Assembly: GCA_964555545.1 (NCBI GenBank) | Contig: CAZKSS010000001.1 | Coordinates: 14,058 to 55,083 of the forward strand | DNA from: an uncultured Planctomycetales bacterium | Lineage (GTDB): Bacteria; Omnitrophota; Gorgyraeia; Gygaellales; Profunditerraquicolaceae | Length of the DNA stretch: 41,026 nucleotides | Reading direction: 5' to 3' | In this document: positions 6,524-29,578 of the stretch, in pieces | How the letters are laid out: the number at the start of each line of letters is the position of its first letter | Position numbering within the stretch: the first letter of the stretch is position 1 | Notes under the pieces: generated by a model | The model's database searches: none | Seen by the model: the letters and a program-made list of their open reading frames with translations, nothing else | What the model was told of the DNA's origin: nothing | Translations under genes and position numbers: made by a program

Positions 6524-6693
6524 ACAACTTACGCAGCGCAAGCGACGTAAGTTGTAGTCCCGCCACAGGCGGGACGTCTGCGAATTAACCCCGCCCTTTT
6601 GGCAAGGCAGGCAATCGAAGCATAACCTGCCCAAAAGGGCGGGGTAAATTCAGCCCGCAAACTTATGTTCGCTATCGCTCCATAAGTTTGGGC
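6524..6693. repeat. Cluster of four consecutive strong hairpins (REP-like or small structured RNA)
   Basis: Inverted repeats: 6524-6533/6546-6555 (10 bp, with a GCAA tetraloop inside), 6557-6564/6568-6575 (8 bp), 6588-6602/6631-6645 (15 bp, with a nested GGCAGG/CCTGCC stem), and 6654-6668/6681-6693 (13 bp with a 2-nt bulge). None is followed by a U-tract. Confidence 0.55.
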
Positions 6694-8123: not shown

Positions 8124-8150
8124 TATCGATCATTCTCTTTTAGTAGGTCC

Positions 8151-8360
8151 TGCCTTGGTCTCCTAACTCAATCCCGTCTCCTCACTCGCTAAAAGGTGCT
8201 CGTCGCATTCGGCTCAACTTCTGCTGTAAGCCCCCCATCCCCCACTGACTGGAAAGAGAGGTGGGGGTTGTTCATAGATGCTAAGCACGGAGAAGTCTCG
8301 CCTCATATACTTACTCCTGCGCGCTCTTCAAGCTCGTTCGGAAACGGTCTTGAGTTTTTC
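8151..8360 (-). ncRNA. Conserved 3' domain of an unclassified structured element (copy B, split)
   Basis: Near-identical by eye to 28953-29160. Contains the hairpin CCCCCAC..GTGGGGG and a helix supported by compensatory changes (8218-8224 with 8289-8295). Confidence 0.45.
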
Positions 8361-8403
8361 TTTTTAATACCTGTAAAATTGATTTCTTTAATAACGGATG
8401 GCA

Positions 8404-8934
8404 TTATTGCAGTGGCGGCGGTAATCCTAAGAAATCTAAAGGTAACTCGTAGAAAAAATAATGGCAGCCAACTGACTTGACATATTCTAAGACATCTCTA
8501 TATTGTTCTTTCTTAAACCAATCATTTAAAATATACACATATTCAACTGCGATTTCTAAAGGCGCAAGTAACTTCTTATATTGGCGATATTTAAAATCGC
8601 AGGTTTGCAATTTTTCATCAACCGATCCAGTCACTTCTTGAAACTTAATTTCAATGATAAAAAGAGTCTTACCAGTAAAAATTAATATGGCTTCATCGGG
8701 TAATAATTTTTTTGAAATAATAGATGAAAAATCAATATTATTCGGCTCTAGTAAGTTTTTATATAATTTATTTTTCCCATAGAATTCAGCGACTCTTTCA
8801 TTTTGGAAATAAACTGTATCGCCTTTAATTTTGTAGCCGGCTAAAGAAGCTAAGAGCTTTTTCATCTCTACTCTTGACTCAAATCTTAAGCCCGCTATTG
8901 CTGTCTTAGAACCTCCCTTACCACCACGGATCAT
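8404..8934 (-). CDS. Putative type II restriction endonuclease (PD-(D/E)xK fold)
   Basis: 176-aa ORF whose start overlaps the methyltransferase stop by 4 nt (ATGA). Carries a PD...ExK motif (LLPDEAILIFTGKTLFIIEIKFQ). The region is AT-rich. Confidence 0.6.
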   Translation of the reverse strand: MIRGGKGGSKTAIAGLRFESRVEMKKLLASLAGYKIKGDTVYFQNERVAEFYGKNKLYKNLLEPNNIDFSSIISKKLLPDEAILIFTGKTLFIIEIKFQEVTGSVDEKLQTCDFKYRQYKKLLAPLEIAVEYVYILNDWFKKEQYRDVLEYVKSVGCHYFFYELPLDFLGLPPPLQ

Positions 8935-26491: not shown

Positions 26492-28864
26492 TCAAAATAA
26501 TCGGGTAGCCAGCATGAACCAACTGGCTGAGCCGGTAAGGTAGGAATACATACCGCGGCCCTCGGCGTTAAAATACTCGGGAAGGCAGGGGTAAATTTTG
26601 CTTACCGGCGTATTTATGCTCATCCGATAAACCGAATCTAAAACCTCTTCGCCTTCTTTGGCATAGCCGCGCTTTAAAAGCGCGTAGGCAAACATTACGG
26701 CCATATGGTTAAAAAATGCGCCGTTTTCTTTATCGCCATAGACAAAAGAAAATGCCCGGCCAAGATGGTGTTGCTCCTCTTTGAAATCCGTATTCAACCG
26801 ATATCCTTTTAATCTCTTGTCCCAGAGATATTTTTTGGTATTCTCCAAAATAGATTTAATCTGCTCATCCGTGGCCACTCCGCTCATTATGGCAAAGACC
26901 TGGGCAGTCAGGGTCATCCTGATTTGGCCGTTCTTTAACCCCTCTACGCGTTCGTTTTTATTATCGTAATACCCATTAAAAAATCCTTGTTTTAACCATT
27001 CTTTCTTACGGATATACTGCTTCATCCATTCAGATTTGGTTAATAAATCTTTGGCCAATAAATCGCTATCTATACTGAATTTTTCTCCGCAGATATGCGA
27101 TTTTGTTTCTTCAAAGTACTTCTTTAATATCTTTTGCTTGGCCTGGATATTACGGTAATCTGTTTTCGTAAAGAGTATCTTCAATTCGCGGGCAATTTTA
27201 ATTTTCTTTTGACCTAAGCTAAGTAAAATTTCGGCTAGGCAGCCGAGGTTATAGGCGTACATACAACTAAAGGCCACGCTCTCACCCTTGTCTCTGGCCA
27301 TATCTAGGCCGTCATTCCAATCGCCGCCTTCCAGGCGCACGTGATTATGGGCACCGACATTGAAAAACTGCACTAAATTCTCTACCAGGAGATGTTCTAA
27401 AATCGTGCCTTGATATACCTTTCCCGACGGGGTTTTCAGTTTATTTCCTGCGGCGGGGCTCCAGTTATGGTCAAAACCCCGCGAGCGAAAAATCTGCTGG
27501 TCGCGAAAATATGGGGCCTCTCTAAACAAAAGAGAAAAATCCCCTGTCTCCTTAAGGTATAAATCCGTGGTCAGTAAAGGCCAGACGCCGTGGTCCATCC
27601 AGACGCGGCTGAGATTATTGCGGTCGGCAATGAATTCTCCCGGTTTTTTGCCCACGATGGTAGCATGAGAGCCGTCAATGCGCACGCCGGAAAAATTATT
27701 AGTGAGTATTTTGCGCGCTTGAGCGGGATTACTAAAAATTAAACCCAGACAATCCTGCCACAAATCCCGCCAGCCGCGTCCGCCTTTACCGTAATCAAAG
27801 TCCGGTAAAAACGAGCAACCAAAAATCCTTCTCAGGGCCGGCTGGATACTCACCCAGCGAAACCAGTTAGCAAAATCCGCATCGCCGCTAGATAGGACAA
27901 AGGAATCGGCTTTCTTCTTCCAGAAGTCCTGCGTTATCTTTAAGGCTGCTTCTACTTTTTTAGGGCGGTTAAACTGGCGTACGGCTCTAAGGATTTCTCT
28001 TTTGTCGTCGGAAATTCCGGCTAAGATTATATAAGCCTGACTTTGCCGGGGCCTGAGGGTTACCTTTCGGAAACGCAGGCCCCCCATCGCCTCTTTACCC
28101 TGAATTCTTTCCTTTCCAGGAGGTAAATTTCTCAATACGCTTAGTGGCGCTTCCAGATCGCCTCCTTCGCCGCAGAACATCTCCTGCGTCGGATAAAGAT
28201 ATTGCGGGGCCTTAAAATTCTGGTCCCAACCTAAGACAAAATAATAGTTTTTATTTGGCCGGTGGCCAGACTCATCAAAAACCAACGTAGGTTTGACGAT
28301 TACCCCGAATTTATGCAAGGTAATGCGTTGCAACAGCGAAGTAACGTGGCGGTGGTCGCGGAGATTAGCGGCGCTGCGGGCATATATAGGTATACTAGCA
28401 GTAGGGATAAAGGTGATGTTTCTGGTAGTAACGTTGGTAACCCTTACCTGCGTTATTTCCACTGGCTCATTGCCTGCCGGTACAAAAGAAAGAATTTCTG
28501 CCTTTAGACCAATACACTTATTTTCGCGGGTGATTTTATGCCAAAGCAAGCCGGCCTCAAGATAGAATTTATCCTTTTCCATCTGTCTTAAGTCCTTAGA
28601 TACGCCGGTGGCAGACCAAATTTTATCTTTATTAATATAGACCCAGAAATTTCTTGATGAGCGCGCATCCACTAAATCTATGCGGGAAACCGGAGTAAGC
28701 AGGAATGAATTCTCTCCGGTTTTGATATCGCCGTGCAGATCAGGCGACACTGAAGACATAATTTTTTCGTTACAGAGCGGAAAATAAAGACCACTGATGC
28801 GGTGGGCGCAATCAGACTCAAACGTGCCGCAGTTATCCGTAAATCTCCACATCCTATCTTTCAT
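26492..28864 (-). CDS. GH94-like glycoside phosphorylase (cellobiose/chitobiose phosphorylase-type (alpha/alpha)6 protein)
   Basis: 790-aa ORF. The N-terminal region and the GGDWNDGLD block resemble cellobiose-phosphorylase-family proteins. Substrate unknown. Confidence 0.6.
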   Translation of the reverse strand: MKDRMWRFTDNCGTFESDCAHRISGLYFPLCNEKIMSSVSPDLHGDIKTGENSFLLTPVSRIDLVDARSSRNFWVYINKDKIWSATGVSKDLRQMEKDKFYLEAGLLWHKITRENKCIGLKAEILSFVPAGNEPVEITQVRVTNVTTRNITFIPTASIPIYARSAANLRDHRHVTSLLQRITLHKFGVIVKPTLVFDESGHRPNKNYYFVLGWDQNFKAPQYLYPTQEMFCGEGGDLEAPLSVLRNLPPGKERIQGKEAMGGLRFRKVTLRPRQSQAYIILAGISDDKREILRAVRQFNRPKKVEAALKITQDFWKKKADSFVLSSGDADFANWFRWVSIQPALRRIFGCSFLPDFDYGKGGRGWRDLWQDCLGLIFSNPAQARKILTNNFSGVRIDGSHATIVGKKPGEFIADRNNLSRVWMDHGVWPLLTTDLYLKETGDFSLLFREAPYFRDQQIFRSRGFDHNWSPAAGNKLKTPSGKVYQGTILEHLLVENLVQFFNVGAHNHVRLEGGDWNDGLDMARDKGESVAFSCMYAYNLGCLAEILLSLGQKKIKIARELKILFTKTDYRNIQAKQKILKKYFEETKSHICGEKFSIDSDLLAKDLLTKSEWMKQYIRKKEWLKQGFFNGYYDNKNERVEGLKNGQIRMTLTAQVFAIMSGVATDEQIKSILENTKKYLWDKRLKGYRLNTDFKEEQHHLGRAFSFVYGDKENGAFFNHMAVMFAYALLKRGYAKEGEEVLDSVYRMSINTPVSKIYPCLPEYFNAEGRGMYSYLTGSASWFMLATRLF

Positions 28865-28952
28865 CGCATTTTAAGTTACCATAGCCAGAGCGCTTTTTCA
28901 AGGGATTTTAACCCTAAACTCGGTGTTCGAACTATTCGGTTTTAACCGATGA

Positions 28953-29390
28953 TGCCTTGCTCTCCTAACTCAATCCCATTTCCTCACTCGCAAAAAGGTG
29001 CTCGTCGCATTCGGCTTTTGTTTTCCTGTAAGCCCCCCATCCCCCACTCACTTGAAAGAGAGGTGGGGGTTGCTCATAGATGCTAAGCACGGAAAACCTG
29101 CGCCTCATATACTTGCTCCTGCGCGCCTTATGCTCGTTCGGAAACGGTCTTGAGTCTTTCCCGCCTGCTGATTTTTGCGGGTGGCTTGGGTGTTTTCAAG
29201 CAGCATGTATTTTGTGCAAGCGGTCTCAGGGTGCCCCGCTTCCTTAAGATAAATAAGGCGAGCGAGCACAAAATCTCAAGCGACATTTTCCACGGTGGGG
29301 AAAATGGAGCGGTGCTGCAAGAATTTACCCAAGACAGGACCCGCAAAACCGTGCGCGAGTAAACCCCGAGGCAAAATAAGAGAGAGAAAC
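28953..29390 (-). ncRNA. Unclassified structured element, intact copy A (candidate large ncRNA or MITE-like element)
   Basis: Second copy of the sequences at 8151-8360 and 9961-10190, here contiguous. Has multiple hairpins, terminal complementarity (28957-28968 with 29377-29389) and a G-U pair that only works on the minus-strand transcript. No credible ORF or RBS. Confidence 0.45.
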
Positions 29391-29404
29391 CCAGAGGGGC
29401 ATTT

Positions 29405-29437
29405 AACAAAAAACCCGCCAGAAAACTAGCGGGTTTT
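29405..29437 (-). terminator. Rho-independent terminator after tRNA-fMet
   Basis: Minus strand reads AACCCGC, an 11-nt loop, then GCGGGTT followed by TTTTTTG. Confidence 0.75.
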
Positions 29438-29440
29438 AAG

Positions 29441-29517
29441 TGGTTGCGGGGGCTAGATTTGAACTAGCGACCTCAAGGTTATGAGCCTTGCGAGCTACCA
29501 GGCTGCTCCACCCCGCG
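29441..29517 (-). tRNA. Initiator tRNA-fMet (anticodon CAU), CCA encoded
   Basis: The 77-nt cloverleaf is nearly identical in its acceptor, D and T arms to E. coli tRNA-fMet. It has the C1-A72 mismatch, A11-U24 and the CUCAUAA anticodon loop. Confidence 0.93.
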
Positions 29518-29578
29518 AAATCTCTTTGTCAGGGGGAATCCGAGTGAAATCGAGGGACTCCACCCCGCGATTATTTAT

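Follow-up and report, generated by a model that had tools for sequence, protein, structure and literature searches.

The stretch of DNA analysed here, 41,026 nt of contig CAZKSS010000001.1 in the assembly GCA_964555545.1 of an uncultured bacterium of the phylum Omnitrophota (hereafter, the window), carries a non-coding block between a gene for the initiator tRNA, tRNA-fMet, on one side and a gene for a GH94 "cellobiose phosphorylase" (26492-28864, minus strand) on the other. A sequence-only reading of this region had proposed that the block encodes one large, ornate RNA of about 440 nt, intact here, and that a second copy lies elsewhere in the window. The second copy does exist; in a repeat search of the window, copy A was found at 28934/28953-29389 and copy B at 8132/8151-8360 plus 9961-10178. 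We describe here the family structure of the parts of this block, their covariation, placement and polymorphism, their independence from one another, and the insertion of the block at the site of copy A. The "440-nt RNA" is probably (at about 0.7) not a single RNA gene but a mosaic, copied within one Omnitrophota genome, of non-coding modules that are independent of one another. These modules are a family of hairpin repeats with a short form (H) and a long form (HL), a second family of imperfect palindromes (P), and a unit designated T, and they are distributed over the two copies as follows.

28911-29405, no strand: whole inserted block at copy A, ~495 nt relative to syntenic relatives
29354-29405, minus strand: 5′ block of copy A, a P-type stub with flank, composed of ~25 nt of flank (UAAAUG..GUUUCUCUCUCUUA) and the first ~30 nt of a P-type hairpin arm (UAUUUUGCCUCGGGGUUUACUCGCGCAC), which follows the P-family consensus
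29172-29353, core 29177-29348: complete HL element, with the minus-strand reading GCGGGUCC...CCACCCGC and UUUU/AAAAA flanks; folds best as the plus strand
28953-29160, minus strand: module T of copy A, a 206-nt self-closing fold, formerly described as the "conserved 3′ half"
9995-10199, minus strand: 5′ part of copy B, with the common flank (10167-10199) and a complete P-type long hairpin (9995-10166)
9961-9987, minus strand: half H element of copy B, 3′ arm only (CUCGAAAACACCCAAGCCACCCGC), matching the 19-mer that defines the H family
8361-9960, minus strand: putative restriction-modification cassette in the middle of copy B, with a methylase (8931-9815) and a PD-(D/E)XK nuclease (8404-8934)
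8151-8360, minus strand: module T of copy B, ending 24 nt upstream of the start codon of the CCA-adding enzyme

Copies A and B have both outer flanks in common. Positions 28934-29126 are 86% identical to 8132-8324, and the counterparts of 29121-29160, 29177-29201 and 29354-29389 are 8321-8360, 9961-9985 and 10143-10178 (83% identity for the last pair), respectively. The outer parts held in common are a block of ~50 nt, comprising the flank and the first ~30 nt of the P arm, and T; on the minus strand, the block common to the two copies ends ...GAAAACACCCAAGCCACCCGC. Because HL stands in copy A, and P with the half H element in copy B, the 5′ halves are two non-homologous repeats, and the idea of a variable 5′ half and a conserved 3′ half belonging to one RNA, with the former as its fast-evolving domain, does not apply.

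The description of the block as a non-coding, helix-rich repeat absent from Rfam is sustained, whereas its unity as one RNA is not. Comparison of the reading frames of A and B showed none that stays open across the conserved part in both. With Rfam 15, the gathering score was reached over the window by two tRNAs only. At E ≤ 10, the region 28850-29450 gave just terminator-like chance matches of at most 22 bits, and copy B gave just a generic long-hairpin match (26 bits vs 268 required); none of the covariance models for known large RNAs (GOLLD, ROOL, OLE, HEARO, raiA, 6S, RNase P and Y RNA) identified the block. The element had no BLAST match among plasmids and phages, and nothing relevant was found in the literature on the 14-mers or on repeats in Omnitrophota. 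Of the two strands of the entire block, the minus strand gives the better fold (-170.8 kcal/mol, z -4.7; plus strand, -150 kcal/mol, z -2.5).

The independence of the modules was revealed by a metagenome scan with a 19-mer conserved between A and B, AAACACCCAAGCCACCCGC, as the family probe. It matches at least 119 metagenome loci (designated below by L and a number), and in every real match the sequence diverges directly after CCACCCGC, the end of the HL element. The two halves of the block occur independently: more than 100 loci contain H, HL or P but not T. Both halves are closed by basal helices of their own, no supported pairing connects them, and they prefer opposite strands, T folding best on the minus strand and the adjacent HL on the plus strand.

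Insertion beside the tRNA-fMet gene

The site of copy A is framed by three further features, none of which is a part of the element.

29441-29517, minus strand: initiator tRNA-Met (CAU), called by ARAGORN and by the Rfam tRNA model
29407-29436, minus strand: intrinsic terminator hairpin of the tRNA, AAAACCCGC...GCGGGUUUUUU; in L174 and L177 the same hairpin abuts the GH94 promoter directly
28866-28910, minus strand: promoter-like region of the GH94 gene, CUUGAAAAAGC..N..UAACUU, downstream of T and aligned with L174 and L177

The tRNA was recognized as an initiator from C1/A72 and its near-identity to Escherichia coli tRNA-fMet, both read from the sequence. Protein homologues of GH94 are named Candidatus Omnitrophota/Omnitrophica, and on the contigs encoding them the genes are arranged in the order ftsH-eno-divIC-tRNA-fMet-GH94. 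On L174 and L177, GAAAAAATCTTGAAAAAGCC..TATGGTAACC and the GH94 start codon come immediately after the end of the tRNA terminator (...GGCGGGTTTTTTGTT). In the window, ~495 nt (29405->28911) separate GGCGGGTTTTTTGTT and GAAAAAATCTTGAAAAAGCC, and the site is thus empty in these relatives. From its sequence, 28866-28910 may act as the GH94 promoter. The presence of tRNA-fMet next to the element is incidental. A terminal-inverted-repeat element bounded by CTTGCTCTCTAA / TTAGGAGAGCAAG was considered for the inserted DNA and rejected: the match between these ends is at chance level and there is no flanking duplication.

Module T

Copies A and B of T are ~89% identical over an indel-free 168 nt. Folded alone, the minus strand of T reaches -81 kcal/mol (z -5.2) and the plus strand -60 kcal/mol (z -2.6). 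Comparison of the two copies and a strain variant of copy B (L172) gave, on the minus strand, three compensatory changes, six one-sided changes kept as G.U and three broken pairs; the same six changes are A.C on the plus strand. One helix that had been singled out earlier, GUUUUCC/GGAAAAC in A vs CUUCUCC/GCAGAAG in B, lies inside T, and its two compensatory changes, which are among these three, and one mismatch were confirmed. This substitution pattern is suggestive of RNA-level constraint on the minus strand, the six wobble changes out of six having P ~0.03 after strand choice in a set of two or three sequences from one species.

T alone (28953-29160; 8151-8360) might therefore be a genuine small structured RNA or an RNA-level cis element of the minus strand, with the hairpin repeats as unrelated passengers, an explanation that we regard as possible although somewhat doubtful. 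Besides the strong self-closing fold, the substitution pattern and the lack of a frame open in both copies, it is favored by the orientation of T, which in both copies is that of the downstream gene, and by a weak promoter-like site, TTGAAA-17-AAAAAT, which ends just upstream of T in copy A. It is weakened by the small number of sequences and the marginal P value just given, by the lack of a terminator after T, and by the absence of homologues. T has no match in the 119 loci listed, in Rfam or among plasmids and phages, and is absent at the syntenic places in L131, L174, L175 and L177. The two conserved blocks of T gave one chance coding match each among viral contigs, and a 19-mer of T gave 42 matches among genome contigs, all of 20-26 nt in unrelated, mostly high-GC genomes. 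A search for spurious open reading frame (ORF) calls, in which the concatenated six-frame peptides of T were compared with a set of 5.8 billion proteins, returned nothing.

T was also considered in relation to its neighbors. As it lies upstream of the conserved promoter-like region in copy A, it is not the leader of the GH94 gene. Nor is it the missing N-terminus of this short gene, since the alignment with GH94 homologues begins at residue 1 and what is missing lies at the C-terminus. A third candidate relationship, kinship with a conserved non-coding stretch that precedes tRNA-fMet in L175 and L177, was rejected for lack of similarity. We regard T as a unit of its own, specific to this species, whose minus-strand transcript probably does fold as an RNA; if it is a functional RNA, it would be a new small RNA of ~206 nt.

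The H, HL and P repeat families

Most of the units found in the metagenome loci are compact imperfect hairpins, usually of 62-67 nt (H), with the consensus (UUUUA)GCGGGUCCUGUCUUGGGUAUUUUCU-(short variable stem)-CGAAAACACCCAAGCCACCCGC(UAAAA). H and HL elements have the ends GCGGGUCCUG.../...CCACCCGC and an almost invariant base, UUUUA-GCGGGU / ACCCGC-UAAAA with an asymmetric internal loop, above which the upper part is variable in length and covarying. A covariance model for H, built from 55 distinct copies and run over 635 kb of metagenome loci, identified 94 sites, up to three of them within 7 kb. Some of these lack the exact 19-mer, and in such copies whole helices are replaced compensatorily (e.g. 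CCGCGGGC/GCCCGCG for UCUUGGGU/ACCCAAG), while the basal stem GCGGGU/ACCCGC and the asymmetric internal loop are unchanged. The bases flanking the stem covary as well (UUUUA/UAAAA, UUUU/AAAA, CAG/CUG and UCG/CGA). H is thus short, non-coding, multi-copy and dispersed, and has inverted-repeat termini (GCGGGU.../...ACCCGC), as is characteristic of miniature inverted-repeat transposable elements (MITEs).

HL has the base of H with ~130 nt in place of the short apical stem, which results in a length of 165-180 nt. The minus strand of copy A from 29348 to 29177 is a complete HL of 172 nt that closes, as seen by folding, by its own basal helix. Its relatives in unrelated contexts are 91% (L143), 87% (L142), 84% (L146) and 82% (L070) identical over 172 nt, and L107 and L140 hold further members of the family. 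An alignment of twenty members, taken on the strand that folds best, gave a three-way consensus structure of 50 pairs. Compensatory changes are found in 32 of these pairs, against 21.1 in shuffled alignments, and none of 500 shuffles reached 32. The paired cells amount to 93.3% (76.5% shuffled), and the covariation score of 0.431 compares with 0.145 in shuffles, 0 of 500 reaching it, and with 0.05-0.125 in slid registers. The upper part contains conserved unpaired GAGCG motifs. The HL structure is real, and it belongs to a 172-nt dispersed repeat, not to a domain of a larger RNA.

Like copy A, the contig L047 (1460-1674) begins with divIC, the tRNA and HL, but after CCACCCGC it runs on into an inverted HL variant, not T. 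The same junction recurs in L142, whose upstream DNA differs; L047 may represent another strain's version of copy A or a chimeric assembly joined across the repeat. A 70-aa spurious ORF inside HL, used as a query against the set of 5.8 billion proteins, returned itself only.

As RNA, the strand reading GCGGGUGGCUUGGGUG... is the more stable one in 90 of 90 H and 20 of 20 HL copies, and the plus-strand preference of the twenty HL members averages 12.5 kcal/mol. This asymmetry rests largely on features common to the whole family, namely one G.U for A.C and tandem G.A for U.C. At the variable pair positions of HL, G.U (36 cells) and A.C (21 cells) are near balance, so that pairing is constrained to about the same degree on either strand, which would be expected of a DNA palindrome or of a hairpin that is transcribed both ways round.

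The placement of H is strongly biased. When a gene was called on both sides, 67 of 68 sites were between co-directional genes, in one orientation in 43 cases and in the other in 24; the remaining site is a convergent spacer, and divergent spacers contain none. H typically starts 0-10 nt past the upstream stop codon, and the genes between element pairs are housekeeping genes (tgt, queA, tmk, cysS and similar). A role of H as intrinsic terminator was rejected on the grounds that it has no U tract and is almost absent from convergent spacers.

H also varies in presence and orientation. One orthologous spacer has an element in + orientation in L090, one in - orientation in L081 and none in L078. 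Two more filled/empty pairs were found (L081 vs L164 and L057 vs L091), and an H downstream of nrdR in L077 and L118 is absent there in the window. H elements adjoin one another in both orientations, half-elements exist, and contigs from the window's own population stop inside these repeats. Most copies have TA...TA on their two sides; these flanking bases, however, are mutually complementary (UUUUA/UAAAA, UUUU/AAAA or CAG/CUG) and lengthen the stem. The sequence-only reading had named, as grounds for giving up an RNA, copies that behave as plain DNA MITEs between target-site duplications: gain, loss and orientation flips are indeed seen in the H family, and the duplications are not resolvable in the filled/empty pairs, as these sites are too diverged (only ~76% identical).

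These data bear on whether H and HL are primarily functional RNA or protein-binding modules, for example mRNA-stabilizing or processing hairpins in operons, that are selected and were multiplied by recombination, and not selfish DNA. The almost exclusive location between co-directional, and hence co-transcribed, genes right past stop codons, the heavy covariation, the conserved unpaired GAGCG motifs, the greater stability of one strand in 110 of 110 copies, and the retention of elements with compensatory changes at orthologous sites in L063 and L089 would all agree with such a function. However, both orientations are common, G.U and A.C are close to balance, the difference between the strands is mostly due to family-wide features, the same spacer is filled either way or empty in related genomes, and elements adjoin each other and occur as halves, all of which makes this explanation unlikely. 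Still less probable, in our estimate, is that HL/H, and separately T, are functional structured RNAs and not merely selfish DNA. If so, HL would be a new and very abundant RNA module of Omnitrophota, with an invariant basal stem and loop, a three-way junction and four GAGCG motifs, and it might be bound by a dedicated protein that controls processing or stability of operon mRNAs.

The second family, P, consists of intergenic repeats that are imperfect palindromes. Its complete member in copy B (10166->9995) folds into a long, nearly perfect hairpin, UAUUUUGCCUCGGGG...CCCCUCGGCAAAAU, and others are found at L127, L086, L134, L059, L131, L116, L053, L052 and elsewhere. An alignment of nine sequences has compensatory changes in 10 of 30 pairs. 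In the syntenic L131 (~72% nucleotide identity), P is at the same place, downstream of a gene for a bifunctional nuclease.

After P, copy B contains only the 3′ arm of an H element (9961-9987), and it is interrupted by 1.6 kb of AT-rich DNA (GC 0.31-0.42 vs ~0.49). The methylase encoded there matches Pfam N6_N4_Mtase (9.5e-56), and the nuclease has a weak PDDEXK_11 match below the Pfam cut-off (E 4.8e-4, 20.3 vs 23.7 bits); by these similarities the two genes look like a restriction-modification cassette. Two unrelated loci, L100 and L151, have homologous cassettes (75-77% nucleotide identity), in each case immediately 3′ of an HL hairpin. A promoter-like motif, GTTAGATTTYRCC...GCGTCTATT, is found 40-60 nt downstream of H/HL in L064, L100, L120, L166 and the window (~9860-9900), and it precedes the methylase gene in the window and in L100. 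The window also has, at 6582-6651, an inverted repeat with 26-nt arms (88% complementary) shortly past the stop codon of the CCA-adding enzyme, a long hairpin whose type of position is like that of H elements.

Proposed origin of the mosaic and comparison with known elements

The reading of the block as a mosaic suggests the following course of events. H and HL would most likely spread as DNA, mobilized in trans by a protein that recognizes the invariant basal stem and loop. After insertion, transcription of the host operon would include them, and they would form stable hairpins in its mRNA. P appears ancestral at the B site, and hence it is most likely that a B-like locus supplied the frame now found at the A site. 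The middles may then have diverged, with HL in A and the complete P, the half H and the restriction-modification cassette in B.

Several points weigh against this account. First, target-site duplications cannot be made out in the filled/empty pairs, for the reason given above. Second, no transposase, RAYT or integrase was seen near any copy, although no systematic search was made. Third, the compensatory retention at orthologous sites in L063 and L089 fits selection for function too. Fourth, T has nine pair-preserving vs three disruptive changes between its copies, and may be a genuine RNA without an assigned function. Finally, as both outer flanks are common to A and B, the frame was copied as a unit, by a mechanism that the account leaves unexplained.

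In behavior, the repeat families are closest to ERIC, REP/REPIN and MITE elements. ERIC/IRU (enterobacterial repetitive intergenic consensus) elements are imperfect palindromes of ~127 bp. Like them, H/HL are imperfect palindromes that occupy transcribed intergenic regions in either orientation and in many copies, and longer variants arise by insertions at an internal position, as in H vs HL. Unlike ERIC, H/HL have an unrelated sequence, occur in a different phylum (Omnitrophota), have a minimal unit of 62-67 nt and are placed tight against stop codons, and the long form carries a conserved, covarying three-way upper domain, not arbitrary inserts. With REP/BIME and the REPINs, which are mobilized by RAYT transposases of the HUH Y1 type, H/HL have in common that they are extragenic palindromic hairpins inside operons, with an invariant part suited to protein recognition, that they are present or absent between relatives, and that they often adjoin. 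However, the H consensus is without the GTAG/GGAG 5′ tetranucleotide, neither of its arms is palindromic, the unit is not a doublet of two short palindromes, and no RAYT gene was seen near H/HL in a search that was not exhaustive. The Correia/NEMIS MITEs are likewise short, non-autonomous, intergenic repeats with inverted-repeat ends that are co-transcribed, form mRNA hairpins and break assemblies. H differs from them in that TA duplication is not consistent, about one-third of the copies having stem-extending UUUU...AAAA or CAG...CUG flanks, and in that no parent insertion sequence was noticed in the loci examined, where no systematic search was made. H/HL, P and T are sequence families not described before; for the repeats, the kind of element is familiar.

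That the block is one minus-strand RNA of ~440 nt of the GOLLD/ROOL class, with paired termini, a variable 5′ domain and a conserved 3′ domain, now seems very improbable. Like GOLLD, ROOL, OLE and HEARO, the block is non-coding, strongly structured and from uncultivated bacteria, and GOLLD sometimes adjoins tRNAs; the better fold of the whole block on the minus strand, the lack of an ORF or Rfam match and the common outer flanks also speak for such an RNA. Unlike these RNAs, the block has no Rfam match at any threshold and is not a single unit, its parts being of 62-206 nt, with H, HL and P multi-copy and dispersed and T in two copies only. The independent occurrence of the halves, the non-homologous 5′ halves (HL vs P), the opposite strand preferences and the insertion absent in relatives argue against it in the same direction. 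Moreover, the pairings that were to hold the single RNA together are not supported, the terminal pairing and the hexamer link being no better than chance. The terminal pairing (28957-28968 with 29377-29389) amounts to 7-8 bp between a CU-rich and an AG-rich segment, has P = 0.4-0.7 in composition-matched shuffles and is also reached by 22% of random 440-nt segments of the window. The hexamer link ACUCGC/GCGAGU is one of 23 complementary hexamer pairs between the halves, where 13 are expected; its ACUCGC sites in A and B do not occupy homologous positions, and GCGAGU already takes part in the closing helix of T itself. The helix of 29363-29378 with 29225-29232 and 29208-29214 corresponds in B to the stem of the P palindrome, and its partner in A, CAAAAUA, sits in a family-conserved helix inside HL.

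It is equally hard to believe that the hairpins are attC-like recombination sites and that the restriction-modification genes of copy B are an integron-type cassette captured there: H resembles attC in its conserved basal stem, asymmetric unpaired spacer, variable-length terminal structure and one better-folding strand, and such a cassette lies directly 3′ of a hairpin of this type in three contexts (B, L100 and L151), but the RYYYAAC/GTTRRRY core sites are absent (the termini being UUUUAGCGGG/CCCGCUAAAA), cassettes do not form same-orientation arrays, no integrase was seen near any copy although no systematic search was made, the intervening genes are housekeeping genes, the elements are single and of mixed orientation (43/24), and the cassette is present in 2 of 119 loci among the matches listed.

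The mosaic reading removes a false lead for a new "giant RNA" and documents three families in Omnitrophota, a widespread uncultivated phylum. H/HL are unusually well defined, having an invariant base, a set of 32 covarying pairs and a position immediately next to stop codons. Their abundance is such that metagenome assemblies break at them and spurious genes are called, and annotators and RNA-motif hunters should therefore recognize them. If they are mobilized via the invariant stem and loop, a transposase or recombinase not yet identified in Omnitrophota is implied; if they act in RNA, they would constitute a REP-like layer of operon regulation.

Some further observations concern the neighboring genes. 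The C-terminus of the GH94 ORF (26492-28864) is ~100 aa shorter than in its ~887-aa Omnitrophota homologues, and the interval from GH94 to purB in L174 and L177 includes a histidine kinase and a response regulator, both absent from the window. A partial copy of the 5′ end of tRNA-fMet (CGCGGGGTGGAG...) lies at 29540-29570 of the window, just upstream of the intact gene. In L175, which is from an Omnitrophota metagenome-assembled genome at NCBI, a group I intron (1955-2664; Rfam RF00028, 62.5 bits) splits the anticodon loop of tRNA-fMet and carries a PDDEXK_5 endonuclease-like ORF. The conserved non-coding stretch of ~270 nt mentioned above lies between divIC and tRNA-fMet (L177, 2560-2830; L175, 1690-1950); it has no Rfam match, is dissimilar to T and folds strongly on the + strand (-112 kcal/mol in L177), and it may be an undescribed RNA.

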